From the NCBI GenBank assembly GCA_963752475.1, contig CAVVYR010000008.1, positions 416,001-480,000 on the forward strand: DNA of 64,000 bases. The letters are read 5' to 3'. Every line of letters starts with the position of its first letter. Position 1 is the first letter of the stretch. Below are positions 32,405 through 47,516 of this stretch, one piece after another. This DNA comes from an uncultured Chloroflexia bacterium (GTDB lineage: Bacteria; Chloroflexota; Limnocylindria; Limnocylindrales; CSP1-4). A program made the position numbers and the translations under genes. The notes beneath the pieces were generated by a model. The model made no database searches. It was not told the origin of the DNA and saw only the letters and a program-made list of their open reading frames with translations.

Positions 32405-33934
32405 CTAGAACTCGATCAGTGCCACGAGGCCCTGGGCAGCAGCCTCGGTCCACTCCAGGATGGCGGCGGTGACCGGCGGCACGAGGCCGATGACGATGAC
32501 CGCCACGGCGGCCACGATGAGCCCGGCTCGCGTGACCGTGCCGATGCTGACCTCCGGCGCGTCCTCGGCCGGCTTGCGCATGTACATGTAGACCACCACG
32601 CGCAGGTAGTAGAACGCGGCCATGGCGGCGTTGAGCATCATCAACACCGCCAGCAGGGTCACGGGGCCGCCGACCTCAAGGGCCGAGAGCACGACCGTCA
32701 TCTTGGCGAAGAAGCCGGCCAGCGGCGGGATGCCCACCAGCGACAGCAGGAAGACCGTCATCAGCAGCGCCAGCACCGGCGCGCGGTAGCCCAGGCCGGT
32801 GAAGGTGGCGATCTGGCTGGTGATGCCCGGCCGTCGCTGCAGCGCGGCCACGACGGCGAAGGCGCCGAGGTTCATGAAGGCGTAGGCGATCGCGTAGAAG
32901 AGCACGCCCTGCACGCCGGACGCGGCGACCGCCGGGTCCTCGGCGGTGGCGAAGACCACCAGGCCGACCATCATGTAGCCGGTATGGGCGATCGACGAGT
33001 AGGCCAGCATGCGCTTGATGTTGTCCTGGCCCAGTGCGGCCAGGTTGCCCACGGTCATGGTCAGCGCCGCGAGCACGCCCACGACCAGCGCCCACTCACC
33101 GCGCAGCGGCCCGAGGGCTTCCACGAAGATGCGCAGGATCAATGCGAAGGCGGCGATCTTGGGACCCACCGAGAGGTAGCCCGTGACCGGCGTCGGTGAG
33201 CCCTGGTAGGCGTCGGGTGTCCAGTAGTGGAAGGGCACCGCGGCGATCTTGAAGAGCACGCCCACCGCCAGCATCGCCAGGCCCATGGCCAGCGCCAGCG
33301 GTAGCGCCTGGTCGCCGCTCAGCACGCCCTCGAGCTCGGTGGCGATGCCAGCCAGCTGCGTATTGCCGGTGAAGCCCAGCACGAAGGCCAGGCCGAACAG
33401 CAGGATCGCGCTGGAGAACGAGCCCAGCAGGAAGTACTTGATCGCGCCCTCGGTCGAGAGCCCGTCGCGCTTGGCGAAGCCTGCCAGCAGATAGCCTGGC
33501 AGCACCAGCAACTCCAGGCCGATGAAGAGGATCAGCAGGTCCTGACCGCCGGCGATGAGCATGCCGCCCGAGACGGCGAACAGCAGCGTGGCCGTGAACT
33601 CGGGCAGGGGCAGCTTGCGCGGCGTCAGGTAGTCAGGTGCGAAGAGCAGCGTGAGGATGGCGATCGAGATGAGCACCAGGTCAAGCAGCGCCGTCAGCAT
33701 GTCGCGGGTGTAGAGCGCGGGATCGCCGAAGGACGCGGCCTCGGCGAGGGCGCCGATATCCCAGGGCATGGGCCCGATGAGCAACGTCGCGACCAGGGCC
33801 ACCACGAGTCCGCCCAGGCCGAGGCCGAGGATGACGTCGTCGCGCCTGGGCAGGAATAGGTCGACGAGGATGACGAGCAGGGCCAGGGCTACCACCAGCG
33901 CGAAGGGGAGCAGGGTCAGCATCTCGTCACTCAT
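32405..33934 (-). CDS. nuoN: Complex I subunit N
   Basis: EGAIKYFLLG, FKIAAVPFHYWTPDAYQGSPT, KRMLAYSSIAH. Confidence 0.96.
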   Translation of the reverse strand: MSDEMLTLLPFALVVALALLVILVDLFLPRRDDVILGLGLGGLVVALVATLLIGPMPWDIGALAEAASFGDPALYTRDMLTALLDLVLISIAILTLLFAPDYLTPRKLPLPEFTATLLFAVSGGMLIAGGQDLLILFIGLELLVLPGYLLAGFAKRDGLSTEGAIKYFLLGSFSSAILLFGLAFVLGFTGNTQLAGIATELEGVLSGDQALPLALAMGLAMLAVGVLFKIAAVPFHYWTPDAYQGSPTPVTGYLSVGPKIAAFALILRIFVEALGPLRGEWALVVGVLAALTMTVGNLAALGQDNIKRMLAYSSIAHTGYMMVGLVVFATAEDPAVAASGVQGVLFYAIAYAFMNLGAFAVVAALQRRPGITSQIATFTGLGYRAPVLALLMTVFLLSLVGIPPLAGFFAKMTVVLSALEVGGPVTLLAVLMMLNAAMAAFYYLRVVVYMYMRKPAEDAPEVSIGTVTRAGLIVAAVAVIVIGLVPPVTAAILEWTEAAAQGLVALIEF

Positions 33935-35484
33935 CGCAGCAGCCTCGCGGTCGCCTCGGAGACCTCGTCAGCCGCGCTCTCGACGATGGCCAGCACGTCC
34001 TCGACCGGTGCCTGCGTCAGGTCCAGCACCAGCGCCGGGAAGAGGCCCAGCGCCACCGCCAGCAGCACCAGTGGCGCCAGCGTGGCAGCTTCGATGCGGT
34101 CGACGTCGGTGAGCTTGTCACCGAGTGACTTCAGGAAGTCGGTGACGTCGCCCATGATGATGTTCTGGACCATGTACAGCAGATAGACGGCCGCGAAGAT
34201 GATGGTGAAGGCGGCCACGTAGCCGACCCACGGCTCCCAGGTGACGGCGCCGAGGATGACCAGGAACTCGCCCACGAAGCCGGCCAGGCCGGGCAGTCCG
34301 GCTGAGGCCAGGCTGAAGAAGACCATCAGGGTCGCGAACACCGGGACCCGCTGCCCCAGGCCGCCCATCTTGGCGATGGTGCGGTCGTGGGTGCGCTCGT
34401 AGATCACACCCACGAGCAGGAAGAGGGCGCCGGTGATCACACCATGGCCGACCATCTGGAAGATGGCGCCCTGCACGCCCTGCTCGTTGAGCACGAAGAT
34501 GCCCAGGGTCACGAAGCCCATGTGGCTGACCGAGGAGTAGGCGATGAGGCGCTTGAGGTCCGTCTGACGGATGGCCACGATGGCGCCGTAGAGCATGCCC
34601 ACGATCGAGAGCGCGATGATGAAGGGCGCCAGGTCCTGCGTGGCGTCGGGGAAGAGCGGCAGGTTCATGCGGATGAGCCCGTAGCCACCGAGCTTCAGCA
34701 GCACGCCGGCGAGGATGACCGAACCCGCGGTTGGGGCCTCGGTGTGAGCATCGGGCAGCCACGTGTGGACCGGCCACATCGGTACCTTGATGGCGAAGGC
34801 CAGGAAGAAGCCCAGGAAGGCCCAGAACTGGAGCGTGGGATCGAAGCCGGCCTCCACCAGCGTCACGTAGTCGAAGGCACCGGTCCAATCACCGCCGTTC
34901 TGGCCCTGATAGGTGAAGGCCAGCGCGAGGATGGCCACCAGCATCAGCAGCGAGCCGACGAGCGTGTAGATGACGAACTTGATGGTGGCGTAGATGCGGT
35001 TGGCGCCGCCCCAGATGCCGATGATCAGATACATCGGCACGAGCACCACTTCCCAGAAGACGTAGAAGAGGAAGGTGTCGAGCGCGAGGAAGACGCCGAG
35101 CATGCCCACCTCGAGCACGAGGAAGGAGATCATGTACTCCTTCACCCGCGTCTTGATGGGTCCGAACGAGGCCAGGATGCTGATCGAGGTCAGCAGCGTC
35201 GTGAGCAGGATGAGCACCAGGCTGATGCCGTCCACACCGACCTTGTACTGGATGCCGAAGAAGCCGATCCAGTCGACCGCCTGCACCAGCTGGAAGCCTT
35301 CGCGCTCGTTGTCGAAGCTCACCGCCACGAGCAGCGAAAGGGCGAGGGCCACGAGCGAGATAGCGAGAGCACCCCAGCGATGGAGATCCACGCGCTTGTT
35401 GGGCACGAAGAGCAGGATCAGGGCGCCCACCAGCGGCGTGAAGATCAGCAGGGTGAGCCAGTCGAGGCGGTCGAGGAACTCCAT
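33931..35484 (-). CDS. nuoM: Complex I subunit M
   Basis: VDGIS, FYVFWE, HTWLPDAHTEAP, KRLIAYSSVSH, GFVGE. Confidence 0.96.
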   Translation of the reverse strand: MEFLDRLDWLTLLIFTPLVGALILLFVPNKRVDLHRWGALAISLVALALSLLVAVSFDNEREGFQLVQAVDWIGFFGIQYKVGVDGISLVLILLTTLLTSISILASFGPIKTRVKEYMISFLVLEVGMLGVFLALDTFLFYVFWEVVLVPMYLIIGIWGGANRIYATIKFVIYTLVGSLLMLVAILALAFTYQGQNGGDWTGAFDYVTLVEAGFDPTLQFWAFLGFFLAFAIKVPMWPVHTWLPDAHTEAPTAGSVILAGVLLKLGGYGLIRMNLPLFPDATQDLAPFIIALSIVGMLYGAIVAIRQTDLKRLIAYSSVSHMGFVTLGIFVLNEQGVQGAIFQMVGHGVITGALFLLVGVIYERTHDRTIAKMGGLGQRVPVFATLMVFFSLASAGLPGLAGFVGEFLVILGAVTWEPWVGYVAAFTIIFAAVYLLYMVQNIIMGDVTDFLKSLGDKLTDVDRIEAATLAPLVLLAVALGLFPALVLDLTQAPVEDVLAIVESAADEVSEATARLLR

Positions 35485-37541
35485 CAGCGGGCCATCAGGA
35501 TGAAGAGCGTCGCGATGACGACGAGGCCGATGGCGATGCCAAGGGCGTAGTTCTGTACTCGGCCGGTCTGGATCTGCCGTACGTCGTCACCGATACGCTG
35601 GGTGACCGCGCCAACGCCGTTGACCACGCCGTCGATGACCTTCACGTCGAACCACATGACGCCGTTGGCCACGCGTCCACCGATGACGTAGAAGAGGAGG
35701 TGGTTGAGCTCGTCGAAGTACCACTTGTTGAGCGAGCCGGTGTAGAGGAAGCGGCTGACCCGGTTGCGCTCAGCCAGGCTCTCAACGGTCTCGAGGCGGG
35801 CGCGTGTGTTGAAGACGCCGAAGAGCCAGATGGCCGCGCCGATGCCAAGGGCGGCCATGGCCACCGAGATGATCAGCAGCGCGCCGTTCAGGCCGAAGAA
35901 CTCGTACTCCGGGAAGGAGATGCCGAGGATGGCCTCACCGGGGTGGAACACCGGTTCGAGCCACTTCTTGATGGGCGAGGTGCCAAGGAGCGGTCCACCC
36001 GGGTCGAAGGCGACCTTGCCGGCGTCGTTGACGAAGAGCCCGGTGCCGATGATGAGGCCGAGGAAGGTCGTAGGGATGGCCAGCAGCACGAGCGGCCCGA
36101 CCATCGAGGGCGGTGACTCGTGGACCTTGGGCTCGATCTCCGGATCGACCCGACTCTTGCCGTAGAAGGTCAGGCCCATGAGTCGGAACATATAGAAGCC
36201 GGTGAGGGCGGCCACGATGATGCCCACGATGAACACCGGCCACCAGCCAAGGACGAAGGCTTCGTCGAGGATGAGGTCCTTCGAGAAGAAGCCCGCGAAG
36301 AGCGGGATACCGGCGAGCGACAGGGAGCCGAGGAGGAACGTCGCGTGCGTCCACGGGATCCTGCGCCAGAGTCCGCCCATCTTGGTCATGTCCTGCTCTT
36401 CGTGCATCGCGTGGATGACCGAGCCGGAGCCGAGGAAGAGCAGGCCCTTGGTGAAGCCGTGGGCCATGAGGTGGAAGATCGCCGCCAGCCAGGCACCCAC
36501 GCCCAGGGCCATGAACATGTAGCCCAGCTGGCTGAGGGTGGAGTAGGCCAGAACGCGCTTGATGTCCTTCTGGGTCAGCGCGATGGTCGCGGCCAGGACC
36601 GCGGTGAAGGTGCCCAGGAGAGCCACCAGCAGCAGGGCCTCGGGCGCTGAGGCGAAGATGGGCGTGGTGCGGGCGATGAAGTAGACGCCGGCGTTGACCA
36701 TGGTGGCCGCATGGATGAGCGCGGAGACCGGCGTGGGGCCCTCCATCGCATCGGGCAGCCAGACATGGAAGGGGAACTGAGCGCTCTTGCCGGCCGCGCC
36801 GACGAAGAGGAGCACGGCCACGGTGTTGCGAACGAGCGGGTCGGCCGACGCGGTATTCCACGCCCCGAAGGACTCGAAGATGTCCATCGTGCCGGTGATG
36901 AGGAAGACGCCGATGATGCCGACGAGGAAGCCGTGGTCGGCGACGCGGTTGACAAGGAACGCCTTCTTCGAAGCCAGCGCCGGTGCGCGCTTCGTGTACC
37001 AGAAGCCGATCAGCAGGTAGGACGAGAGGCCCACCAGCTCCCACGCGCCGAAGACGACCAGGTAGCTGCTCGCGAGCACCAGCAGGAGCATCGAGAACAT
37101 GAACAGGTTGAGGTAGGCGAAGAAGCGCCACTTCGACGGGTCGTGCTCCATGTAGCCGATGCTGTAGATGTGCACCAGTGCGCCGATCCAGGTGACCACG
37201 ATGAGCATCAGCGCCGAGAGGTTGTCGAGCACGAACCCGAACTCGACCTGCAGATCGCCCACGCCGACCCAGGTGTAGAACATGTGCGCGATGCCGTGCT
37301 CGCCGTAGGCACCGGAGAGTTGCTGGAAGGCGAGGTACGTGGCCACCAGCGTCGCAGCCACGATGGCGCCCACCGAGATGACCCACGGCCGCGAGAGGCG
37401 CCGGCCGACGAGACCCGTGAGCAGGAAGCCGGCCAGCGGCAGGCCCAGCACGAGCAGGATGAGGAACGTCTCGAGCTCGCCTGCGGGCCCGGGCGGGATG
37501 AAGAGCTCGCCGCCCTCCTCCGCGTTGAAGATCAGGTCCAT
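35484..37541 (-). CDS. nuoL: Complex I subunit L
   Basis: GKSAQFP..WLPDAMEGPTPVSALIHAATMV, QTGRVQNY. Confidence 0.96.
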   Translation of the reverse strand: MDLIFNAEEGGELFIPPGPAGELETFLILLVLGLPLAGFLLTGLVGRRLSRPWVISVGAIVAATLVATYLAFQQLSGAYGEHGIAHMFYTWVGVGDLQVEFGFVLDNLSALMLIVVTWIGALVHIYSIGYMEHDPSKWRFFAYLNLFMFSMLLLVLASSYLVVFGAWELVGLSSYLLIGFWYTKRAPALASKKAFLVNRVADHGFLVGIIGVFLITGTMDIFESFGAWNTASADPLVRNTVAVLLFVGAAGKSAQFPFHVWLPDAMEGPTPVSALIHAATMVNAGVYFIARTTPIFASAPEALLLVALLGTFTAVLAATIALTQKDIKRVLAYSTLSQLGYMFMALGVGAWLAAIFHLMAHGFTKGLLFLGSGSVIHAMHEEQDMTKMGGLWRRIPWTHATFLLGSLSLAGIPLFAGFFSKDLILDEAFVLGWWPVFIVGIIVAALTGFYMFRLMGLTFYGKSRVDPEIEPKVHESPPSMVGPLVLLAIPTTFLGLIIGTGLFVNDAGKVAFDPGGPLLGTSPIKKWLEPVFHPGEAILGISFPEYEFFGLNGALLIISVAMAALGIGAAIWLFGVFNTRARLETVESLAERNRVSRFLYTGSLNKWYFDELNHLLFYVIGGRVANGVMWFDVKVIDGVVNGVGAVTQRIGDDVRQIQTGRVQNYALGIAIGLVVIATLFILMAR

Positions 37542-37547
37542 CCCCGC

Positions 37548-37859
37548 CTACTCCTTCATCGACGCGTACTCGTCGACGAGCGGCGTCCTGCGGTTGCGGT
37601 AGATGGCGATGACGATGGCCAGGCCCACGGTGGCCTCGCCGGCGGCGACGGCGATGACGAACAGCGCGATGCTCGAGGCGTGGGCCGCGAAGTCGGGCGT
37701 GAAGGCGCCGAAGGCGATGATGGCCAGGTTGACCGAGTTGAGCATGATCTCGATGGACATGAGCATGGCGATGGCGTTGCGCTTGGCCAGGAAGCCGAAG
37801 GCGCCGATGCCGAAGAGCATGACCGCCAGGATGAGGTAGGCCTCGAGCGACTGGCTCAT
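37548..37859 (-). CDS. nuoK: Complex I subunit K
   Basis: MSIEIMLN, AAGEATVGLA. Confidence 0.95.
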   Translation of the reverse strand: MSQSLEAYLILAVMLFGIGAFGFLAKRNAIAMLMSIEIMLNSVNLAIIAFGAFTPDFAAHASSIALFVIAVAAGEATVGLAIVIAIYRNRRTPLVDEYASMKE

Positions 37860-38437
37860 GCGCTCTCATCCTCATCGGGCACGGGCCTGCCGGGCTGGTT
37901 GGTCTGCGGCATGTCGTCGTCGCGCTTGGCCACGTAGAGCCCGCCGATCACGCCCGCGAGCAGGAGCACGCCCAGTGCCAGGAAGGCGAACATGTACTCC
38001 TCGTAGACCGTCAGCGCGATCTCGCGCGCCTCGGCCACCTGCACCGTGCTGGTCGCGTCCCACTCGGTGAGCATCACCGACGTGATCATCAGGAAGACGA
38101 GCACGATGGCGGCGAGGGCGCCGGCCCACCATTGGCGGTTGAAGACGAGCTTGGCCGGCCCGCGCTTGGAGTGCGTGATCATCACCGCGAAGAGGATGAG
38201 CACGGCCACGGCCCCGACATACGTGAGTACCTGGCTGATGGCCAGGAAGGCGCTGCCGAGCATGCCGTAGATGCCTGCGAGGGCGGCGAAGGACAGGATG
38301 AGCCAGAGCGCCGACCGGATGATGTCCCGGCCGAGCACGACGAGCAGCGCGGAGCCCAGTGTCACGCCGGCGAGCAGCAGGAAGACGAAGTCATCCCAGC
38401 GCCAGTCGAGATACGGGACCGTCCCCGGTAGCTCCAC
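37856..38437 (-). CDS. nuoJ: Complex I subunit J
   Basis: SALWL, QVLTYVGAVAVLILF. Confidence 0.93.
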   Translation of the reverse strand: MELPGTVPYLDWRWDDFVFLLLAGVTLGSALLVVLGRDIIRSALWLILSFAALAGIYGMLGSAFLAISQVLTYVGAVAVLILFAVMITHSKRGPAKLVFNRQWWAGALAAIVLVFLMITSVMLTEWDATSTVQVAEAREIALTVYEEYMFAFLALGVLLLAGVIGGLYVAKRDDDMPQTNQPGRPVPDEDESA

Positions 38438-38460: not shown

Positions 38461-41070
38461 CTACTTGTGGTGGATGGCGCTGCCACCGCCGGCACCGCCG
38501 GAGGCGTCCCTGGCGCCGTTGGTAGATCCATTCGTCCCGTTCACGCCGTCCCCGGCGAGGCCTTGCGGCAGCATGGGCAGCAGCCGCTCGTGCGGGATGT
38601 CGCGGCCGTCGGCCTGGGCTCGGCTGAGCCAGTCACGCTCGCGTCGGATGTAGCTGATCTCCGAGTCGAACTCCATCGCGGCCATGGCGATGAGGTCGAT
38701 CATCGGTTCTTCTCGCGACTCGTGCGCGAGCTCGAAGTCGGGACCGCAGCGGAGCGCGTCGTAAGGACATGCATCGACACAGATGCCGCACAGGATGCAG
38801 CGGGACTCATCCACCTCGTACTTCTCCAGCACGCGCGGCTTGGGCATGAGCGCGCCCGTCGGGCACGTCTCGGCGCAGCGGCCGCAGGAGACGCATGGCG
38901 TGGTGTTGAGGCTCATGTCCAGCGGCGTCGTCACGAGCGTGTCGAAGCCGGTGCGCATGAAGTCGTAGCAGGCTGCTCCCACGACCTCGCGGCAGACGTT
39001 GGCGCAACGGCCGCAGTCGATGCAGCGCGAGGGCTCGCGCAGGATGAAGGCGTGGCTGTCGTCGCGGATGTAGTCGTGGTTGAGGCCGGTGAAGCGGTTC
39101 TCGCTGACGCTGCGGAAGGAGAGGCCGGTGCGCTTGGGCTCGAGGGTCTGCAGGGTGGTGCCGTACTCGATGCCCTGGCGGCGCAGGTCACAGTACCCGA
39201 TGGCCTCGCAGGTGCACTGCAGGCAGCGGGCCGACTCGGACATGGCCTCTTCCGCCGTGTAGGGGATCTCGTACTCGATGTAGGAGTCGTTGCGCTCCTC
39301 GGGCGCCATCGACTTCAGCCGGATGCGCGGCTCCTTGACCTCGCCGGTGTAGGGCACGATCGACAGGAACTCCGGCTGCGGCTCGGCCAGGACCTGGCGC
39401 GTGCGGATCTCCTCGAGGTCCTGGCCCTGCAGGTAGGCGTCGATGGCGTAGCTCGCCCGGCGACCCTCAGCGATGGCCTCCACGACCGTGGCGGCGCCGG
39501 TGCGCACGTCGCCGGCACCGAAGACGCCCGCCCGCCCGGTGCCGAAGGTGACCGCGTCGGCGTCCAGCCGCCAGCGCTTGGTCTTCTCGATGCCCTCCGC
39601 GCCGGTCTCGAGCCAGTCCAGCTGGGGGCCCTGGCCGATGGCCAACAGCACGCGATCGCAGTCGATGATGAACTCGGTGCCCTCGACCGGCTGCGGGCGT
39701 CGGCGGCCAGAGGCGTCCGGCTCGCCCAGCGCCATGCGCTGGAACTCCACGCCGGTGACCTTGTCGTTCTCGTCGGTCACCACCCGGGTGGGCGAGGCTT
39801 GGAAGATCGCGCGCGCACCCTCCTCCAGCATCTCGTGGACCTCGTCCGCGGCGGGCATGTCCTTCATGTCGCGGCGGTAGACGAGGGTGGTCTCGGTGCA
39901 GCCCTGGCGGACCGAGGTGCGCGAGCAGTCCATGGAGGTGAAGCCGCCGCCGATGACCACGACGCGCTTGCCCTTGTGGTCGGGATAGGGCAGGCCCAGC
40001 GTGGCCACGCGCAGGTACTCCAGGCCGTCGATGACGCCGTCGGCGTCCTCGCCGGGGATACCCAGCTTGTTCGTGTCGTAGCAGCCGATGGCTACGAGCA
40101 CCGCGTCGTAGCCCTGGTTCTGCAGGTCGTCGATGGTGAAGTCCTCGCCCAGGGCCACGCCCGTGACGAGCTTGGCGCCGAGGTCCCACACCGCCTGGTA
40201 CTCGGCTGCCAGGATGCGCTCCTTGGGCAGGCGGTACTCGGGGATGCCGTAGCGCAGCATGCCGCCCGCATCGGGATCGCGTTCGTAGACCGTGACCTCG
40301 TGGCCGCTGAGTGAGAGGTAGTAGGCCGCGGACATGCCCGAAGGGCCGGAGCCGATGACGGCCACGCGCTTGCCGGTGGCGGGCTGCTGGTCGAAGGGCA
40401 GAGGTGCCTTGGCGCCGTCAGCCTGGGCCTTGAGCACCTGGTCGCCGGCGTAGCGGTGGCTGTCGCGGATGGCGATGGCCTCTTCCACCTCGTCGCGGCG
40501 GCAGTGGTCCTCGCATGGAGCCGGACAGACACGCCCGAGCACCGAGGGGAATGGGATCGTGCGCTTGAAGACGCGCGCCGACTCGACGAAGTCGCCCTCG
40601 GTGTTGGCCTTCAGGAAGCCCGGGATGTCGATGTGGCTGGGGCACTTGTTCTGGCACGGCGGCAGGCAGTAGGCGTTGTGGTCGCTGAAGATGAGCTCAA
40701 GGTTCGTCTTGCGGATCTCGCGCAGCCTCGGGGTCTGGGTCTGCACGACCATGCCCTCCTCGGCCTCACGCGAGCAGGAGATCGGCGGCGTGTCCTCGCC
40801 CTCGACCTCGACCACGCACATGCGGCAGGCTCCGAAGCCGGGCAGCTTGGGCTCGTAGCAGAGCGTGGGCACCTCGATGCCGGCATCGCGGCAGACGTCG
40901 AGGATGGTCTGGCCCTCGCGGGCCTGCAACGTGCGGCCGTCGATCTCGAGCTCGAAGGCAGCAGAGGATTGCCTTCGCTGCGGCGACTGGGTCGTGAGCA
41001 GGCGCTCAGCGGCCTCGTCGGGCGACGGGTCGGACGGCTGGTGGATGATCTCGGGGAGCGTGTCGGTCAT
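38461..41070 (-). CDS. Fusion: NuoG-like N-terminal Fe-S region + GltD-like FAD/NAD(P)H oxidoreductase + C-terminal half of NuoI
   Basis: PTLC..GACRMC..SC (2Fe-2S); PPCQNKCP, GRVCPAPCEDHC; GSGPSG, GGGFTSMD, YRR; CIDCGRC..C, CVSCGRC..CP; YEVDESRCILCGICVDACP..GPDFELA. Confidence 0.85.
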   Translation of the reverse strand: MTDTLPEIIHQPSDPSPDEAAERLLTTQSPQRRQSSAAFELEIDGRTLQAREGQTILDVCRDAGIEVPTLCYEPKLPGFGACRMCVVEVEGEDTPPISCSREAEEGMVVQTQTPRLREIRKTNLELIFSDHNAYCLPPCQNKCPSHIDIPGFLKANTEGDFVESARVFKRTIPFPSVLGRVCPAPCEDHCRRDEVEEAIAIRDSHRYAGDQVLKAQADGAKAPLPFDQQPATGKRVAVIGSGPSGMSAAYYLSLSGHEVTVYERDPDAGGMLRYGIPEYRLPKERILAAEYQAVWDLGAKLVTGVALGEDFTIDDLQNQGYDAVLVAIGCYDTNKLGIPGEDADGVIDGLEYLRVATLGLPYPDHKGKRVVVIGGGFTSMDCSRTSVRQGCTETTLVYRRDMKDMPAADEVHEMLEEGARAIFQASPTRVVTDENDKVTGVEFQRMALGEPDASGRRRPQPVEGTEFIIDCDRVLLAIGQGPQLDWLETGAEGIEKTKRWRLDADAVTFGTGRAGVFGAGDVRTGAATVVEAIAEGRRASYAIDAYLQGQDLEEIRTRQVLAEPQPEFLSIVPYTGEVKEPRIRLKSMAPEERNDSYIEYEIPYTAEEAMSESARCLQCTCEAIGYCDLRRQGIEYGTTLQTLEPKRTGLSFRSVSENRFTGLNHDYIRDDSHAFILREPSRCIDCGRCANVCREVVGAACYDFMRTGFDTLVTTPLDMSLNTTPCVSCGRCAETCPTGALMPKPRVLEKYEVDESRCILCGICVDACPYDALRCGPDFELAHESREEPMIDLIAMAAMEFDSEISYIRRERDWLSRAQADGRDIPHERLLPMLPQGLAGDGVNGTNGSTNGARDASGGAGGGSAIHHK

Positions 41071-42389
41071 GAAGCCACGGCACCAACTGTGCGGGAGGGT
41101 TGGCAGACACCGGCGGGACATTCACCGCGCTCGGCGTGGGCATCTAGTTCAGGCGCGAAGTATCGCATCACCGACAGCAGTGGGTTGCCGGCGTCGGCTT
41201 CGAGCCCGGAGAGGGCCGCGGCACGCATGTCGGCCGCGAGCGCGCGCATCAGCTCCTGGTCGCTGGGCCGAGTGTGGCCGCTGCAGAGGGCCGCGCCCAG
41301 TTCCGCGAGGCGGCGGATGCCGATGCGATCGGGGATGGTCTTGCCGCTGGCGTTGTCGCTCAGGAAGCGAGTCATGAGTGTGGCCAGGTCGACGAGACAG
41401 ACCTTGTCATCGAGGGCCATGAGCGTGCTCGAGCCGCCCAGTGCGCCAGCCTCGCGCAGGGCCTCGTAGCGCAGCGGGGTGTGGAGCGCGCCCGGCGGCA
41501 GGAAGCCGCCGGTGGGACCGCCCACGAGCACGGCCTTGAGGTTGCCCTTGGTACCGCCGCCGGGGCCGTCCACGATCTCCTTCAGCGTGGCGCCGAAGGG
41601 GACCTCGGCGATACCCGGCCGCTTCACGGAGCCACCCAGCTGCAGCAGCGTGGTTCCCGGGCTTTCCGCGTCAACCAGCGAGCTGAAGGCGCCGGCGCCG
41701 TTGGCCACGATCCAGGGCACGGCCGCGAGGGTCTTGACGTTGTTGATGACGGTGGGCTTGCCCCACAGGCCCTTGCGCGACGGGAACGGCGGCCGCTGAT
41801 CGGGCTGCGCGCGCTGGCCCTCCAACGCTCGCAGCAGCACGGTCTCCTCGCCGACCATGAAGCTGCCCGTCAGCTCGCGCACCTCGACCTCGAGGCTGGG
41901 CCCGTCGGCAGAGCGGCCGATGTAGCCGGCTGCAACGGCCTCGTCGATGGCCGCGTCGAGGCGCTCGGCCGCGACGGGTGCCGACGATGAGACGGCGATG
42001 GTGGCCTGCTCGGCACCGACGGCCCAGGCTGCGATGGCCACGCCCTCGACGACGAGGTGCGGGTCCCGCTCCATGAGCACGCGGTCAAGCTGGGCACCCG
42101 GGTCGGCCTCGAAGCCGTTGGCCACGACGTAACGCACCGGGTCGGGCTGCGAGACGCAGTCGCGCCACTTGGCGCCTGTCGGATATCCGGCTCCGCCCAG
42201 GCCGCGCAGGCCGGATTCGGTGATGGTGTGGACGACGGCCTCGGGCGAGAGCTGCTCCGTCGCGCGCTTCCAGGCACTCCAGGCTCCGCCGGCCTCGGCC
42301 ATGGCCAGGTCCTCGACCTCTCCGTCGGCGGCTCGCGCGGTCAGTACCTGCGGCCAGTCCTTGGCTCCCTGCAGGATGGGCAGGCTCAT
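41067..42389 (-). CDS. NuoF/HydB-like protein lacking the N3 cluster cysteines
   Basis: SGLRGLGGAGYPTG.KW, EADPG, GEET, GLWGKPTVINNV, GGPTGG; ASGKTIPDR in place of SCGxCxPCR. Confidence 0.88.
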   Translation of the reverse strand: MSLPILQGAKDWPQVLTARAADGEVEDLAMAEAGGAWSAWKRATEQLSPEAVVHTITESGLRGLGGAGYPTGAKWRDCVSQPDPVRYVVANGFEADPGAQLDRVLMERDPHLVVEGVAIAAWAVGAEQATIAVSSSAPVAAERLDAAIDEAVAAGYIGRSADGPSLEVEVRELTGSFMVGEETVLLRALEGQRAQPDQRPPFPSRKGLWGKPTVINNVKTLAAVPWIVANGAGAFSSLVDAESPGTTLLQLGGSVKRPGIAEVPFGATLKEIVDGPGGGTKGNLKAVLVGGPTGGFLPPGALHTPLRYEALREAGALGGSSTLMALDDKVCLVDLATLMTRFLSDNASGKTIPDRIGIRRLAELGAALCSGHTRPSDQELMRALAADMRAAALSGLEADAGNPLLSVMRYFAPELDAHAERGECPAGVCQPSRTVGAVAS

Positions 42390-43225
42390 GCCGCCTCCCC
42401 CTGGGGCACGTTGGCGCGCAGGGCCGCGGCGATCGTGGCCGCGTCATCCGGGCTCGACTTGGGCAGCGGTTCGCCGTCGACCTCCACGTAGGCGCTGTCC
42501 TGGGATGCGCCGCCGCACGAGGTGGTGGCGAGGCGCACGGCACCGTCGGGGCTCACGCCACCGATATCGGTGGCGAGGTGCTCGCGGAAGGCCGCCAGTA
42601 CGCGGCCGCCGCCCAGCAGCGTGCAGTTCGTGCAGCGGCAGACGCGGACCACATGGCCCACGGGCTGCTCGAAGTGGAGGTGCGGGTACGACGTGGCCAT
42701 GCCGTACAGCGAGGCGTAGTCGGCGCCGGTCTGGTGGGCGATGTGCTGCAGCGCGGCCACCGGCAGGTGGCCGTAGGCGCCCTGCACCTGCTCGAGCATC
42801 GGCAGCGCGTTGCTCGGCTTGTAGGCACCGGCGCTGAGGATCTCGTCGACGGGGCCCAGGTCGATGGTCTCGAAGGGGTCGAAGGTGCGATCGGGGACCG
42901 GCCGGCCGGAGCGGCGCAGGGCCGACTCCTCACGGCGCTCGGCGTACTGCTCGGAGGCGCCCCAGTGCACGTGGTACCGGTCGCGCGTGTCCACGCCACC
43001 CATATCGATGCACTCGATGGGACAGGCCTGCGCGCACTGGAAGCAGGTCTCGCACTTGAGCGTGCCGGCCTCGTCGTAGACCAGGATCAGCCGACCGCGG
43101 TGCTTCGGGCTGATGGGGTTCTGCTCTTCGGGGTAGCGCACCGTCAGGTTGGGGCGGAAGACCTGCTTGATGGAGAAGGCCATGCCCTTGATGATGGCCA
43201 GGCCGGGGATGCGGTCGGTCCTCAC
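42386..43225 (-). CDS. Fusion: N-terminal half of NuoI + NuoE-like domain
   Basis: TVRYPEE..HRG, CETCFQCAQACP (one motif only), then L..VQ..YGHLP, ATSY, CRCTNC, CGGAS; GTG overlaps the nuoH stop; AAGGAG RBS. Confidence 0.85.
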   Translation of the reverse strand: MRTDRIPGLAIIKGMAFSIKQVFRPNLTVRYPEEQNPISPKHRGRLILVYDEAGTLKCETCFQCAQACPIECIDMGGVDTRDRYHVHWGASEQYAERREESALRRSGRPVPDRTFDPFETIDLGPVDEILSAGAYKPSNALPMLEQVQGAYGHLPVAALQHIAHQTGADYASLYGMATSYPHLHFEQPVGHVVRVCRCTNCTLLGGGRVLAAFREHLATDIGGVSPDGAVRLATTSCGGASQDSAYVEVDGEPLPKSSPDDAATIAAALRANVPQGEAA

Positions 43226-44619
43226 GACAGGTACTCCTTGACCACGATGATGGCGCCGGCGGTGACCATCAGGTTCAGCAGTGCGGCCGGCATCAGCCAC
43301 TTCCAGGCGAAGTTCATCATCTGGTCGATGCGCACGCGGGGGTAGGTGGCGCGCATGAGCACGAACAGCGCGACCAGCGCGAAGGACTTGCCGAAGAAGA
43401 CGAGGATGCCGAGCAGAGCCTCGAAGCTGAAGAGCGCCCAGGTGGTGATGCCGCCCATGACGATGAGGTTGGCCAGGACGAAGCCGACGACGAGCGACTT
43501 GATCGCGCCCCAGTCGGACTTGAGCATCCAGATGAGGCCGCCCAGCGCCAGCCACAGCACGGCCGGGATAAGGAGCGGGACGGCCAGCAGCCACGGACCG
43601 AGCTGACCCGGATCGACGTCGCTGAGCACGACCGGCGTGGCGACCCCGAAGAACTCGAGGATGGGGTCGATATGGATGCCGTGGTGGTAGCCGCCCAGGA
43701 AGAGCGTGACCGTCAGGGCCGAGAGGATGAAGACGTTGACGTACTCGGCGAAGAAGAAGAAGCCGAAGCGCATGCCGCTGTATTCGGTGGCGAAGCCGGC
43801 CACGAGCTCGGAGTCGGCCTCCGTGTAGTCGAAGGGTGTGCGGCCCGCTTCAGCGGTGGCGGCGATGAAGAAGATGATCAGCGCGAGGGGCTGCTGGAAG
43901 GCGTACCAGTTGACGAACCAGCCGCCCTGGTTCTCGACGATGGTGCCAAGGTTGAGCGTGCCCGCGAGCAGGACCACGCCGAAGGCGCCAAGGATGAGCG
44001 GCAGCTCGTAGCTGACGACCGCGGCTGCGGCTCGGATACCGCCGAGCAGCGAGTACTTGTTGTAGCTCGAGAGGCCGGCCATCATCAGGCCGACCACGCC
44101 GATGCCCGAAGCGGCGAAGAAGTAGAGCAGCCCCAGCTCCATGTAGTAGCCGGCCATGCCCGGCGCGAAGGGGATGACCATCAGCGTCATGACCGACGCG
44201 AGGAAGGTCACCGCTGGTGCGAGCGTGAAGACCGGCACGTCCACGCCGCGCGGGGTGTAGTCCTCCTTCGAGAGCACCTTGAGGCCGGCCATCAGCGAGG
44301 CCAGCGCGCCCCACGGGCCAGTGCGGTCGGGACCGACGCGCAAGTTCATCTGCGCGATGATCTTGAGCTCCATGTAGATGATCACGAAGGCCGCCGGCAC
44401 CGTGAAGAGCAGGACGCCGGTGGCCGCAGCGAAGAAGCGCAGGATCTCGATGTTGGCCTCGCCGGCGTCGACGATCCACTCCACGGCTGAGGGGCCGAGG
44501 CCGGTGACCCAGAGCAGGAAGAAGCCGATCGCGCCTGCCAGCACCAGGGCCAGCAGGGCAAGGACGATCTTGCCCAAGGTGGTCACGCCCGCGGGTGCCG
44601 GGCTGGCGGTGGCGCTCAC
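43222..44619 (-). CDS. nuoH: Complex I subunit H (extended)
   Basis: RVGPD, SYNKYSLLGG.R, SYE, RTPFD..EADSELVAGF.TEYSG, PRVRIDQ. Confidence 0.95.
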   Translation of the reverse strand: MSATASPAPAGVTTLGKIVLALLALVLAGAIGFFLLWVTGLGPSAVEWIVDAGEANIEILRFFAAATGVLLFTVPAAFVIIYMELKIIAQMNLRVGPDRTGPWGALASLMAGLKVLSKEDYTPRGVDVPVFTLAPAVTFLASVMTLMVIPFAPGMAGYYMELGLLYFFAASGIGVVGLMMAGLSSYNKYSLLGGIRAAAAVVSYELPLILGAFGVVLLAGTLNLGTIVENQGGWFVNWYAFQQPLALIIFFIAATAEAGRTPFDYTEADSELVAGFATEYSGMRFGFFFFAEYVNVFILSALTVTLFLGGYHHGIHIDPILEFFGVATPVVLSDVDPGQLGPWLLAVPLLIPAVLWLALGGLIWMLKSDWGAIKSLVVGFVLANLIVMGGITTWALFSFEALLGILVFFGKSFALVALFVLMRATYPRVRIDQMMNFAWKWLMPAALLNLMVTAGAIIVVKEYLS

Positions 44620-45839
44620 TTGTCGATCCCGCCCATGATCGGGTCAAGGCTGGCCATGATGGCCATGATGTCGGCGAGAACGTGACCCTTGGAGAGCGGG
44701 CCCACGGCCTGCAGGTTGAAGAACGAGGGATCGTGGATGCGGAAGCGGAACGGCTGGTCGGAGCCGTCGCTGACCGCGTAGGCGGCATATTGGCCGCGGG
44801 GTGACTCGAGCGCTGCGAAAGCACGGTTCGGCGGGATGCGCAGCAGGCGCGGCAGCTTGGCCATCACCGGCCCGTCGGGCATCTCGTGGAGCACCTGGTC
44901 GATGATGCGGATCGACTGCTTGATCTCGTCGATGTGCAGCAGGTAGCGCGCATAGGAGTCGCCATCGTTGCGCGTGGGGATATCGAACTCGAGCTCGGGA
45001 TAGACGCTGTACGGATGCGCGCGGCGGACGTCGTAGGGCACGCCCGAGGCTCGCAGGGGCGGGCCGGTCATGTTGTAGCGCAGGGCCATCTCGCGGTCGA
45101 CCACGCCGAGCCCCTTCGTGCGGTTCACGAAGATCTCGTTCTCGTTCATGAGCGTGGCCTGATCGTCGATGCGTGCGGCAGCGTGCCCCATCCAGTCGCC
45201 GAGGCGGCTGAGGAACTCGTGGTTGAGATCGCCGTTGACACCACCGATGCGCATGTAGTTGAAGAGCAGCTTCTGGCCGGTCAGCGCCGCCAGCATCTCC
45301 ACGATCTCGTCGCGCTCGGCGAAGCCGTAGAGGATGGGCGTGAGGCCGCCCAGGTCCAGCGCCAGCCAGCCGATGAAGGTGGCGTGGCTGCTGATGCGGT
45401 TGAGCTCCCAGGCGAGCACGCGGATGTACTCGGCGCGCCGCGGCACCTCGAGATCGAGCAGGCGCTCGGCGGACAGCACCGGCAGCGACTCACTGAACAT
45501 CGAAGCGATGTACTCGAGCGGGTCGGTGTTGCTGATGGCGTGGTGCCAGTCACCGTGCTCGCAGATCTTCTCCACGCCGCGGTGGAGGTAGCCCAGCACC
45601 GGGTCGATGTCGACGATCCTCTCGCCGTCGATCTTCATGACCACGCGCAACACGCCGTGGGTGGAGGGGTGCTGAGGGCCCAGGTTCAGGAACATCTCGC
45701 CGTCGTCGAGCTGGTAGAACTCGGCCTCGCGCTCGGTACGCGGGGTCAGCGGCGGGATGGCGTCGTAGATGGTGCCCGGCGTCTGGACCATGATCTCGGG
45801 ATCGTCGAGGCTGCGCATCTGCTCGCGGTCGGTGGTCAT
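44616..45839 (-). CDS. nuoD: Complex I subunit D
   Basis: NLGPQHPSTHGVLR, GYLHRGVEK, ESPRG; no NiFe CxxC motifs. Confidence 0.96.
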   Translation of the reverse strand: MTTDREQMRSLDDPEIMVQTPGTIYDAIPPLTPRTEREAEFYQLDDGEMFLNLGPQHPSTHGVLRVVMKIDGERIVDIDPVLGYLHRGVEKICEHGDWHHAISNTDPLEYIASMFSESLPVLSAERLLDLEVPRRAEYIRVLAWELNRISSHATFIGWLALDLGGLTPILYGFAERDEIVEMLAALTGQKLLFNYMRIGGVNGDLNHEFLSRLGDWMGHAAARIDDQATLMNENEIFVNRTKGLGVVDREMALRYNMTGPPLRASGVPYDVRRAHPYSVYPELEFDIPTRNDGDSYARYLLHIDEIKQSIRIIDQVLHEMPDGPVMAKLPRLLRIPPNRAFAALESPRGQYAAYAVSDGSDQPFRFRIHDPSFFNLQAVGPLSKGHVLADIMAIMASLDPIMGGIDK

Positions 45840-46468
45840 GCCGGCTCCTCGCCGCTCTCGACCGCATCGGTCTCGTCGGCCGAGCCTGCGGCCACGGCCA
45901 GCAGCTTGCCATCCGCGCCCAGCCGCGCGCCGGCACCTGCGCTGGTCCGGATCACGGGGTTCTCGCGGTTCTCGGCCGGGGCCACGGGCGTCTCGATGTG
46001 GCGGATGCCCTCGCCCGGAGCACGCGAGGCGTCGTCAGGCATGGCGAAGTCCTTGCGCAGGGGGAAGGCCAGGTAGTCGGGCGGCATGTAGATCCGGCGC
46101 AGGTCGCGGTTGCCCTCGAACTCGATGCCGAACATGTCATAGGCCTCGCGCTCGCCCCACTCGGCACCAGGCCAGAGCTGGGTGACCGAGGGCAGGCGCG
46201 GATCTTCACGCGAGAGGCCGTCGGCGATGACCCGGACCCAGTCCTCCGAGAGCGGGCTCCAGAGGTGGTACACGACCTGCATGGTCACGCCGGTGTCGAC
46301 GCCGCAGATGTCGGCCATCAGCTCGAAACGCAGATCGCCGTCCTCGCGCAGCGTGCGCATGACGGCCGTGAGGTCCGCGGGACGGACGACCAGCTCGATG
46401 GTGTCGCCCATGACCTCCGCAGGCACGACGGTCCGATCAGCGAGGCGATCGTCGATGAGGGCGAGCAT
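45836..46468 (-). CDS. nuoC: Complex I subunit C (start uncertain)
   Basis: VVYHL, EREAYDMFGIEF, FPLRKDF. Confidence 0.93.
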   Translation of the reverse strand: MLALIDDRLADRTVVPAEVMGDTIELVVRPADLTAVMRTLREDGDLRFELMADICGVDTGVTMQVVYHLWSPLSEDWVRVIADGLSREDPRLPSVTQLWPGAEWGEREAYDMFGIEFEGNRDLRRIYMPPDYLAFPLRKDFAMPDDASRAPGEGIRHIETPVAPAENRENPVIRTSAGAGARLGADGKLLAVAAGSADETDAVESGEEPA

Positions 46469-46491
46469 GCGCGTATCCGTGGCGGGCCTCC

Positions 46492-47166
46492 CTAGACGCC
46501 TTCCGGCACGGTGGGGCCGACCTTGCGGTCCTTCCACTGACCGCGGCGTTCGAGCACGAGTTGCTGCAGCTTGAGCATCCCGTAGATGAGGCCCTCCGGC
46601 CGCGGGGGGCAGCCGGGGACGTAGACGTCGACGGGCATGATGCGATCGATGCCCTCGACGGTGGAGTAGGAACGCTTGTAGCGGCCGCCCGAACAGGTGC
46701 AGTCACCCATGGCCACGCACCACTTGGGCTCGGGCATCTGCTCCCACAGGCGGATGAGCGGGTCGGCCATCTTGGTCGTGAGCGTGCCGGCCACGATGAG
46801 CACGTCCGCCTGCCGTGGCGAGGCACGGAAGGGGAACATGTTGAAGCGGTCCATGTCGTTGACCGGGGTGGCCGAGGACATCATCTCCATGGCGCAGCAG
46901 GCCAGGCCGGAAAGGAGCGGCCAGAGGCTGTTCGCGCGGAGGTAGTCGAACAGCAGGTCCGCGGTCGTGGGCACCACGTCGAGTGCGCCCCAGCGGCCGT
47001 TGTCGCCCTTCTCGCCGAACTCCAGTTCCTTGAGGTGATCGACGTGGGCGGCCTGCCCGCCGCTGTAGGCCTCTGGGTCGGCTGGCTTCCAGGTCGTGTT
47101 GGGCAGGACGATCGCACCGCGCTTGTCAGCGGTCGTGGCCTCCTTGCCGGTCTTCTTCACTTCCAC
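46492..47166 (-). CDS. nuoB: Complex I subunit B
   Basis: GLACCAMEM, ASPRQAD, MGDC, VDVYVPGCPPRPE. Confidence 0.96.
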   Translation of the reverse strand: MEVKKTGKEATTADKRGAIVLPNTTWKPADPEAYSGGQAAHVDHLKELEFGEKGDNGRWGALDVVPTTADLLFDYLRANSLWPLLSGLACCAMEMMSSATPVNDMDRFNMFPFRASPRQADVLIVAGTLTTKMADPLIRLWEQMPEPKWCVAMGDCTCSGGRYKRSYSTVEGIDRIMPVDVYVPGCPPRPEGLIYGMLKLQQLVLERRGQWKDRKVGPTVPEGV

Positions 47167-47516
47167 GTCAGCAGGCCCTTCCTGGCGGCATACAGCACCG
47201 AGATCTCCATGATGCCGATGAACAGGAGCATGCCCATGAAGCCGCCGGTCAGCACGTCATCGAAAACGAGCGCCCACAGCGCGATGAAGAGGACTTCGAC
47301 GTCGAAGGCCACGAACAGCAGGGCGTAGAGGTAGAACGAGAGACCGAAGCGACCGCGGGTGTCGCCATAGGTGTCGATGCCCGACTCGTAGGGCAGACCC
47401 TTGTGCTCATCGCCCTTGTGCCGGTGCGAGATGAACCAGGCCAGTCCGATCGTCAGGAAGACGAAACTGAACCCCGCGATCACGAAGCCGAGCACGTACC
47501 AGAGCGGAGCGGTCAA
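47157..47516 (-). CDS. nuoA: Complex I subunit A
   Basis: PYESG, FYLYALLFVAFDVE, KGLLTW. Confidence 0.94.
   Translation of the reverse strand: MTAPLWYVLGFVIAGFSFVFLTIGLAWFISHRHKGDEHKGLPYESGIDTYGDTRGRFGLSFYLYALLFVAFDVEVLFIALWALVFDDVLTGGFMGMLLFIGIMEISVLYAARKGLLTWK

Follow-up and report, generated by a model that had tools for sequence, protein, structure and literature searches.

The stretch of DNA analysed here (the window, 64,000 nucleotides) comes from an uncultured bacterium of the class Limnocylindria (phylum Chloroflexota), represented by a metagenome bin of 4.25 Mb that is 88.8% complete and 5.8% contaminated, and it carries on its minus strand an operon of respiratory complex I genes in the order nuoA, B, C, D, H, I'E, F, G'I'', J, K, L, M, N. 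The gene of interest, G'I'' (the target), encodes an iron-sulfur (Fe-S) flavoprotein in which a GltD-like unit is nested inside a NuoG-like chain, and in which one half of NuoI forms the C-terminal part. The balance of the evidence leans towards this being the main Fe-S flavoprotein subunit in a respiratory complex I of non-canonical type, which would act as a proton-pumping, reversible oxidoreductase between menaquinone and NADPH (reduced nicotinamide adenine dinucleotide phosphate). The start codon of the target (ATG at 41070) overlaps the TGA of the nuoF-like gene upstream (ATGA), and its stop codon occupies 38461-38463; a longer open reading frame (ORF) from 41121 would give 886 amino acids (aa), 17 residues more (P0001), so that P0001 positions are those of the 869-aa protein, used for residue numbers throughout, plus 17. 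The orthologues in which ligands were compared belong to 42 loci of five families of the class, f1 to f5 (42 G'I'', 39 I'E and 41 NuoF-like proteins), and two alignments were used, A1 with 30 sequences of I'E and A2 with 36 sequences of the target. The parts of the target are the following:

38461..41070, minus strand: G'I'', the target gene, StnC/NfnA-like Fe-S flavoprotein with a C-terminal NuoI half, 869 aa
40732..40959, minus strand: 2Fe-2S domain, residues 38-113, ligands C71, C82, C85 and C99 (Pfam Fer2_4, E 9e-21, P0001 55-130)
40666..40680, minus strand: first half of a His-type 4Fe-4S motif, H131 to C135 (NADH-G_4Fe-4S_3 and comparison with a paralogue; invariant in A2)
39211..40665, minus strand: inserted GltD/NfnL-like unit, 485 residues, 136-620 (Fer4_20, Pyr_redox_2, NF009454 and alignment with 9bov_A)
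39190..39210, minus strand: second half of the His-type motif, C621-x5-C627 (comparison with a paralogue; invariant in A2)
38848..39045, minus strand: ferredoxin-like domain with the 4Fe-4S motifs C683, C686, C689, C693 and C726, C729, C732, C736 (Fer4_Nqo3, Fer4_7)
38695..38835, minus strand: C-terminal NuoI half, residues 746-792, C758, C761, C764 and C768, then GPDFE (TIGR01971 positions 71-117 of 121)
38464..38694, minus strand: variable C-terminal tail, partly of low complexity, residues 793-869 (without a family match; poorly conserved in A2)

An earlier note on this DNA had read from the gene a 2Fe-2S domain, SDHNAYC, a GltD/NfnB-like unit, CEAIGYC, CIDCGRC and CVSCGRC, in that order, and every string that it quoted is present; the domain parsing that it proposed recovered, with Pfam, Fer2_4, a partial NADH-G_4Fe-4S_3 (profile positions 1-17 of 40 only, at P0001 137-153), Fer4_20 (profile positions 27-110 only, at P0001 152-231, E 4e-18) and Pyr_redox_2 (P0001 252-553, E 1e-29), to which Fer4_Nqo3 (P0001 693-758) and Fer4 (P0001 768-791) can be added. 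The 2Fe-2S motif strings are LCYEPKLPGFGACRMCV at 70-86 and ISCS at 97-100, and their four ligands are invariant in A2. The halves of the His-type motif fall within SDHNAYCLPPCQNKCP, at 129-144, and RCLQCTCEAIGYC, at 615-627; a formate-dehydrogenase-like paralogue encoded in this genome has the same motif without interruption (SDHPLDCLTCSANGDC), and the target reads SDHNAYC, 485 residues, CEAIGYC, which bears out the proposal that the flavoprotein is inserted within the motif at the position of cluster N5. The inserted unit has two 4Fe-4S sites (C139, C143, C182, C186, C190, C616 and C619, together with H205), a fold for flavin adenine dinucleotide (FAD) at G240-G245 and one for NADPH at G374-G376, and the residues Y398 R399 R400, the corresponding strings being VCPAPCEDHC (181-190), VIGSGPSG (238-245), VIGGGFTS (372-379) and VYRR (397-400). 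It is organized as in the GltD/NfnB family, with a two-cluster domain followed by the FAD and NAD(P)H Rossmann folds, except that the first cysteine pair has been relocated: the move of ARCLQC to the end of the unit, also suggested earlier, holds because RCLxC-x4-C-x3-CP stands at the N-terminus in the standalone GltD paralogues of this genome, while the RCLQC pair of the target ends the inserted unit.

Beyond the insertion, the ferredoxin-like motifs are found in RCIDCGRCANVC (682-693) and PCVSCGRCAETCP (725-737), and a third C-terminal 4Fe-4S motif, RCILCGICVDACP (757-769), falls in the match to the NuoI profile; the cysteines of both parts are invariant in the 42 orthologues and in A2. Taken as a whole, the flavoprotein has all its Fe-S ligands, its two glycine folds and the YRR conserved in each of the 42 orthologues. 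The absence of the molybdopterin-type domain with which NuoG ends, as the earlier note had it, agrees with the best 25 of the 27 Pfam families matched, among which there is none of that type. An AlphaFold2 model of the target, built from 36 sequences, has a mean predicted local distance difference test (pLDDT) score of 62.6, with values near 90 in the GltD part.

The nested architecture itself is, as judged by alignment, already known, namely from the StnC/NfnA large subunit (Protein Data Bank, PDB, entries 8oh5, 9bov and 9n5u), which in StnABC and NfnABC is a NuoG-like chain with a GltD/NfnL-like NADPH unit (PMC10482914; PMC11829005). The best PDB match of the target is 9bov_A (E 2.4e-166, P0001 58-784 to 6-698 of 1178), followed by 9n5u_A (NfnA, E 1.5e-146) and 8oh5_C (E 4.7e-145), and the order of the parts, that is, 2Fe-2S domain, interrupted His-type motif and ferredoxin-like domain, is the same over some 700 residues in StnC of Sporomusa ovata (8oh5/8oh9), in NfnA of Caldicellulosiruptor saccharolyticus (9bov/9bp5) and in an archaeal NfnA (9n5u). 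Both NfnA and StnC oxidize NADPH, and the path described by cryo-electron microscopy (cryo-EM) runs from the FAD through two clusters, the 4Fe-4S cluster A3/C5, the next 4Fe-4S cluster, the 2Fe-2S cluster and B1 to flavin mononucleotide (FMN), two further clusters being a dead-end branch into a formate-dehydrogenase-like C-terminal domain, which carries the last cluster and makes the tetramer (PMC11829005; PMC10482914). The cluster A3/C5 is taken to be that of the His-type motif.

The target also differs from these enzymes. The formate-dehydrogenase-like domain is absent from the target, which ends about 100 residues past the ferredoxin-like domain (869 aa, against 963-1178 in the PDB chains) and has the C-terminal half of NuoI in its place; its best NCBIfam model, NF009454, gives 551.2 bits, below the cut-off of 916. 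At the cluster proximal to the FAD, the lysine ligand K170, strictly conserved in StnC according to PMC10482914, is replaced in the 9bov_A alignment by H205, which is invariant in 36 sequences. Finally, Stn and Nfn are soluble three-gene units, of which the B and C subunits are closest to the F and E neighbours of the target, whereas the target is encoded in a nuo operon.

The split of NuoI is a point absent from the earlier note: by profile matching, the protein is divided in two and its C-terminal half ends the target, the N-terminal half being found two genes upstream:

42386..43225, minus strand: I'E, N-terminal NuoI half and NuoE-like protein, 279 aa, two genes upstream of the target
42986..43186, minus strand: N-terminal NuoI half, I'E residues 14-80, C58, C61, C64 and C68 (TIGR01971 positions 1-66; invariant in A1)
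42419..42847, minus strand: NuoE/StnA-like thioredoxin-type domain, I'E residues 127-269 (Pfam 2Fe-2S_thioredx, E 6e-23; 8oh5_A)

The NuoI profile TIGR01971 has 121 positions, of which 1-66 are matched by the N-terminus of I'E and 71-117 by the C-terminus of the target, so that 113 of the 121 are covered jointly, while each half scores below the cut-off of 113 bits. Profile searches of this genome detected no intact NuoI, the best matches being the two halves; the two CxxCxxCxxxCP motifs, which NuoI has in one polypeptide of some 160-180 aa, are here on separate proteins. As the halves lie in I'E and in the target, the E-F-G' cassette sits inside a split nuoI, and since both halves of the only NuoI are fused to cassette proteins, the cassette is not independent of complex I. 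A prediction of the complex between I'E 1-112 and target 655-805 with four 4Fe-4S clusters reached a score of 0.31, against a mark of 0.32, which speaks neither for nor against their pairing. As for the remainder of I'E, the best solved relatives of its E part are StnA, HydC and NfnC (8oh5_A, 9bov_C), and the NuoE-like domain of the window has only three of the four 2Fe-2S cysteines; the complete four-cysteine site of the NuoE type is found in none of the 39 I'E orthologues either, and the domain is truncated in several genera and a mere remnant in f3 and in other classes.

Between I'E and the target lies the gene that in canonical complex I would provide the site for NADH:

41067..42389, minus strand: NuoF-like gene, 440 aa (Pfam Complex1_51K, SLBB and NADH_4Fe-4S)
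41208..41348, minus strand: N3 site of the NuoF-like protein, whose ligand positions read S348, T351, D354 and S394

The NuoF-like protein is most similar to the core part of Nfn/Hyd B subunits; its best solved relative is NfnB (9bov_B, 350 bits, against 254 bits for Nqo1 of Thermus complex I), and it aligns to residues 120-525 of the 584 of 9bov_B, without the added ferredoxin-like and thioredoxin-like domains. Of the two elements that an NADH-oxidizing module needs, the FMN site and cluster N3, the loop of the former is present (GLRGLGGAG, residues 61-76) and the latter is absent, with none of its four cysteines; N3 being gone, the FMN/NADH route would be disconnected in this genome. Contigs of two other studies span the cysteine-less N3 codons of the window, differing from it at 2 of 193 and 8 of 251 bases (the material from sequencing runs consisted of contigs throughout), and three changes would be needed to bring cysteine back at only D354 (GAT) and S394 (TCC). 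Compared with three genomes of the same genus, the NuoF-like gene is the fastest-changing of the 13 genes of the operon (79.5, 69.3 and 68.8% identity, with a ratio of nonsynonymous to synonymous substitution rates, dN/dS, of 0.26-0.38), and the G' flavoprotein stands at 91.4, 89.8 and 87.0% identity (dN/dS 0.11-0.15). The NuoF-like protein is here probably retained mainly as a structural part. The FMN loop of the window shows a further lineage-specific change in this subunit: among the 39 orthologues with sequence there, RGRGG is found in 36, mostly as GLRGRGG.

The remaining genes of the operon, where the starts of nuoA, nuoB, nuoC, nuoD and nuoH are those of the longest ORFs, were assigned by Pfam:

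47157-47516, minus strand: nuoA
46492-47166, minus strand: nuoB
45836-46537, minus strand: nuoC
44616-45839, minus strand: nuoD
43222-44619, minus strand: nuoH
37856-38437, minus strand: nuoJ
37548-37859, minus strand: nuoK
35484-37541, minus strand: nuoL
33931-35484, minus strand: nuoM
32405-33934, minus strand: nuoN

Thus NuoA, B, C, D, H, J, K, L, M and N are all encoded in one cluster, in which NuoB has the four cysteines of N2 (CC...C...CP) and NuoD the motifs HPSTHG and YLHRG. Start and stop codons overlap at H/I'E (the GTG start of I'E at 43225 with the nuoH stop, GTGA), at I'E/F and at F/G', and a profile search found a single NuoD gene in the genome, along with three further NuoF-like genes in contexts other than nuo; the membership of the target in complex I is supported by this translational coupling within the only nuo operon of the genome. 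Three of the ORFs carry extra stretches. NuoH, with 465 aa, has about 90 extra residues (approximately 312-403) with respect to the Pfam profile and to an f4 orthologue, and an f2 orthologue aligns through them; the NuoB ORF has an N-terminal extension of some 60-90 residues before Oxidored_q6, which matches from residue 90; and NuoC extends at its C-terminus past residue 168, the nuoB and nuoC ORFs overlapping.

The distribution of the arrangement was followed in 121 genomes of the class, in tallies that include six genomes flagged as unpublished, none of whose sequences were used. Full-length orthologues occur in all 24 genomes of the same genus and all 16 of a second family (40/40), and with the C-terminal 247 residues of the target as query a match was obtained in 117 of the 121 (by family, f1 35/35, f2 5/5, f3 35/39, f4 40/40 and f5 1/1), while an intact NuoI over the family cut-off was found in only 3/121 (f1 0/44, f2 0/5, f3 2/21, f4 1/49 and f5 0/1). 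The architecture is conserved across the five families. The strongest argument for membership in complex I comes from complementary split gene sets: in a genome of f3, one locus amid unrelated genes has nuoB, D, I', F and G'I'', and a second locus supplies exactly the genes that the first is without (nuoA, C, H, J, K, L, M and N), none of them twice; the genome has a single NuoH, and intact NuoI is absent from it. A gene of Methyltransf_28 (L039:6389-7507) lies two genes downstream of the former locus; this is the family of the complex I assembly factor NDUFAF7 (10.1101/2021.02.01.429150), and in a genome of f4 the operon is interrupted between G'I'' and nuoJ by a gene of the Fic/DOC family on the opposite strand (L040:10889-12049).

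Outside the class, such a protein is present in 31 genomes, in a sample of 301 from the phylum. Four of them have a four-gene cluster B-I'-F-G'I'', one of these with an A-C-D-H cluster elsewhere, and three of the four additionally encode a canonical NuoH and an intact NuoI; in one further genome a cluster A B C D H I' F G' accompanies the canonical set. The family is represented by 559 loci, all from close relatives, in contigs of one genome per species and by thousands of metagenome proteins, under the database labels "FAD-dependent oxidoreductase" or "formate dehydrogenase major subunit", and among the best 150 representatives only one from outside the group of the window has the third motif (P0135, 816 aa).

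If we accept that the gene belongs to complex I, it is probably NADPH, and not NADH, that this enzyme connects with the quinone pool, and electron transfer could have taken the following course: (i) NADPH would give a hydride to the FAD; (ii) single electrons would leave the FAD by way of both GltD-type clusters and arrive at the His-type cluster, which occupies the N5 position; (iii) from there they would reach the two NuoI clusters, each of which would need cysteines of both polypeptides, either directly, as from N5 to N6a in ordinary complex I, or by way of the two ferredoxin-like clusters, the second of which lies 17 residues before the NuoI half and in NfnA starts the dead-end branch (PMC11829005); (iv) and finally, the NuoI clusters would feed N2 in NuoB, and this the quinone, probably menaquinone, at NuoD/NuoH, while NuoH, A, J, K, L, M and N would pump protons. 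As the reaction should also run in reverse, proton-motive force could drive the reduction of NADP+. A preference for NADPH is suggested by the invariant YRR and by the likeness of the unit to those of StnC and NfnA, which bind NADPH, the stretch LVYRRDMKDMPA of the target aligning with lyrrtreempa of NfnA. Purifying selection acts on the other genes of the operon, and the FMN site could hardly feed the chain; the flavoprotein would therefore be the working entry. The earlier note had taken it as the real point of entry or exit of electrons, and for this genome the idea is supported by ligands invariant in 42/42 orthologues, an N3 reduced to 0/4 and an incomplete NuoE-like site; it does not extend to the whole family, and a sole entry through the flavoprotein is argued for this genome only, because 29 of the 41 relatives keep three N3 cysteines and 12 keep four.

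With regard to its origin, all three cassette proteins (G', F and the E part) find subunits of the same solved enzymes as their best matches, and the gene order is that of 11-gene nuo operons outside the cassette and that of Stn/Nfn genes inside it. We infer that a three-gene cassette of the Nfn/Stn type was inserted into nuoI in an operon that then had 11 genes (A B C D H I J K L M N). Its bifurcation-specific parts would have been lost afterwards: from A the formate-dehydrogenase-like domain, from B the additional cluster domains, and from C the cluster.

Several observations weigh against this reading and should be considered together. The pLDDT of the AlphaFold2 model falls below 50 over residues 618-813, which covers all the C-terminal Fe-S parts; the complex is known from its genes, the quinone type and the proton pumping being read from the presence of subunits, and the choice of NADPH over NADH is deduced from a motif and from homology; the statement that this is the only complex I holds for the assembled part of an 88.8%-complete bin; and every other relative keeps at least three N3 cysteines (41/41, 9/9 and 78/78 aligned, in sample sets that overlap one another), the FMN loop GLRGRGGAG is widely kept among them, and the dN/dS of the NuoF-like gene is below 1. 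Because at least three N3 cysteines and the FMN loop are kept, NADH may still enter through the NuoF-like protein in most of the family, and the genome of the window may be the exception.

This leads to the alternative that survives best, a complex I with two doors, in which NADH would be oxidized at the FMN of the NuoF-like protein and NADPH at the FAD of the GltD-like unit, with one chain to quinone and a transhydrogenase side reaction. For the window it is a possible but tentative explanation; for the family at large such an enzyme is a serious rival. In the Stn and Nfn relatives the same clusters connect FAD with FMN (PMC10482914; PMC11829005), nearly all NuoF-like orthologues retain the GEET motif and the FMN loop, and the gene is under purifying selection with the values given above; likewise, four N3 cysteines are found in 12 of the 41 orthologues (f3, f5 and two genera of f1) and in all five loci from other Chloroflexota classes. 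Nevertheless, the N3 positions of the window read S, T, D and S, which cuts the FMN off from the chain, and the NuoF-like protein is the least conserved of the 13. In the 29 orthologues with three cysteines it is the second position that has changed, to T or S in 20 (f1, f2) and to A in 9 (f4), nine further loci of the same genus, partly from the same genomes, also have three each, and the patterns in 80 loci of one genome per species are CTCC in 61, CSCC in 10, CCCC in 5 and CACC in 2, with two unaligned, so that this cysteine is T, S or A in 73 of the 78 aligned. Furthermore, several genomes of other classes also hold a canonical complex I, which suggests a different job for the present one.

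Another alternative, an unlikely one, is that the GltD-like unit uses NADH, in which case the enzyme would be an ordinary NADH:quinone oxidoreductase with a replaced dehydrogenase head. The complex is the sole complex I found in the genome, and an aerobic heterotroph must re-oxidize its NADH; the nucleotide preference of a GltD-type fold, moreover, can shift with few changes. Against this, Y398 R399 R400 are invariant in 42 orthologues and match those of NfnA, which oxidizes NADPH, and the genome encodes PntB, which can link the NADH and NADPH pools, so that NADH could reach the enzyme by way of NADPH.

Much less probable still is a bifurcating or confurcating complex of the Bfu type working with ferredoxin, as proposed for Nuo-Bfu, or a soluble Stn-like transhydrogenase that happens to be encoded in the nuo operon. 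The best solved relatives of all the cassette proteins are indeed bifurcating Nfn, Stn and Hyd enzymes, and membrane-bound Bfu complexes have been predicted (Schut et al., 2022, PMC9304861). Nonetheless, the core expected of a Bfu-type enzyme is incomplete, as the NuoF-like protein is without the N-terminal and C-terminal two-cluster domains of NfnB, homologues without these sites being described as not bifurcating (PMC11829005), and the 2Fe-2S site of the C-like subunit is incomplete; together with the covalent fusion of both halves of the sole NuoI to cassette proteins, this led to the rejection of both the soluble enzyme and the bifurcation with ferredoxin. The least credible explanation, a decaying, non-functional complex I in a metagenome bin, could appeal to the lost N3 ligands, the incomplete NuoE-like cluster site and the completeness and contamination of the bin, but it was rejected because the 13 genes have neither frameshifts nor internal stops, show a dN/dS of 0.06-0.38 against three relatives, include the N2 ligands and the quinone-site motifs, and belong to an architecture conserved in five families.

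Returning to the reading of the target as the NADPH-linked large subunit of complex I, the system can be placed among those already known. It shares with canonical complex I (Thermus thermophilus, 2fug/4hea) the 2Fe-2S domain of the NuoG type, the His-type motif and the ferredoxin-like domain, as well as a NuoF-like core, both cluster motifs of NuoI, and all the membrane and Q-module subunits in one operon. In contrast with canonical NuoG, the target is without the C-terminal domain and has a flavoprotein inserted in the motif at the N5 position, and it matches the NuoG model (TIGR01973) with only 92.7 bits, against a cut-off of 470, the best stretch being positions 1-99 of 606; NuoI is here split over two polypeptides, the E, F and G genes, canonically between nuoD and nuoH, lie as E, F and G' between the halves of NuoI, and of the cluster sites N1a is incomplete and N3, in this genome, missing.

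Nuo-Bfu, predicted in Deferribacteres, Proteobacteria, Planctomycetes and Nitrospirae, and Mbh-Bfu, in Dehalococcoides, likewise have an ABC input module of the Bfu type amid a complex-I-like cluster, but with a full bifurcating BfuB that has the C-terminal ferredoxin domain used to collect that family and, in Nuo-Bfu, without a GltD unit, and in the portions of that paper relied on here no split NuoI is described for them (Schut et al., 2022, PMC9304861). Thermotoga and proteobacteria have mbx-like operons in which a complex-I-related membrane complex also bears a NAD(P)H flavoprotein related to gltD, which is said to substitute for NuoI in a partial nuo/Mrp-type cluster and NAD(P)+ is reduced by electrons derived from ferredoxin (Degli Esposti, 2015, PMC4758237); here, instead, a NuoI is retained, in two halves, the flavoprotein sits within the NuoG-like chain, and all 11 core Nuo genes are present. 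Those operons often end with rubrerythrin (PMC4758237), and the genome of another Chloroflexota class with the A B C D H I' F G' cluster has a rubrerythrin gene directly 3' of its G'-like gene (L086:6427-6987), with none of nuoJ-N in the next 5.6 kb and a second nuoA-nuoB pair beyond.

A last comparison concerns Chloroflexi, for which a second complex I gene set without nuoG has been described, with nuoF far away, at a distance of 800 genes, in Chloroflexus aurantiacus, many genomes having 13 of the 14 nuo genes and only NuoG missing (Tang et al., 2011, PMC3150298; Spero et al., 2015, PMC4453560). Similarly, genomes of other classes in our sample hold B-I'-F-G'I'' apart from A-C-D-H, and the sections of those papers that bear on these sets do not name a GltD-containing protein as a substitute of NuoG (PMC3150298; PMC4453560). 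The target family is a candidate for the "missing NuoG", as a lead rather than a result. A search of the literature, which did not extend to the supplementary figures of the Stn, Nfn and Degli Esposti papers, found no paper that describes NuoI as split or counts this flavoprotein among the Nuo subunits.

Complex I is taken as an NADH enzyme, and the alternative input modules known for it use F420H2 or ferredoxin. A proton pump wired to an NADPH-type flavoprotein would tie the anabolic reductant to respiration, or provide a supply of NADPH driven by proton-motive force, and it would illustrate an evolutionary route in which the cassette of a soluble bifurcating transhydrogenase was apparently inserted in the gene of a core subunit and then trimmed, the old NADH door decaying to different degrees across lineages. 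A still broader proposal, to which we would give about an even chance, is that there exists across Chloroflexota a second kind of complex I, the sole one in nearly all the Limnocylindria sampled, whose input would be a bifurcating Nfn/Stn cassette domesticated by insertion in nuoI, and which would couple NADPH/NADP+, and not NADH, to menaquinone and proton-motive force, the former "dead-end" Fe-S branch becoming a live wire to NuoI; beside a canonical complex I it may run backwards, from quinol to NADPH, and it would contain the missing "NuoG" of the second Chloroflexi complex I, a puzzle for which a concrete candidate would then be at hand (PMC3150298; PMC4453560). The family is common in environmental data, and given its current labels, metabolic reconstructions of these bacteria probably misread the respiratory chain.

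With respect to expression, RNA-library contigs of one run match the target with 0-1 differences at 39575-39725, 39920-40090 and 40396-40546, a weak hint of transcription, since DNA can occur in such libraries; no meaning attaches to the stretches left uncovered. Elsewhere in the same genome, the PntB gene, for a subunit of the membrane proton-translocating transhydrogenase, is located at C4:41562-42974 (570 bits), and on the same contig (C4:244851-248906) there is an open frame of 1113 aa, from stop to stop, in which a NuoF-like and a GltD-like part are fused, followed by a protein of 238 aa that matches the 2Fe-2S and ferredoxin-like parts of the target; this pair looks like a soluble system of the Nfn/Stn type with another order of domains. 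Three ORFs of 685 aa, at C8:226716-226952, C23:23685-23921 and C24:28349-28585, have identical scores for a two-cluster ferredoxin and may be a repeated gene or the product of redundant contigs in the bin.

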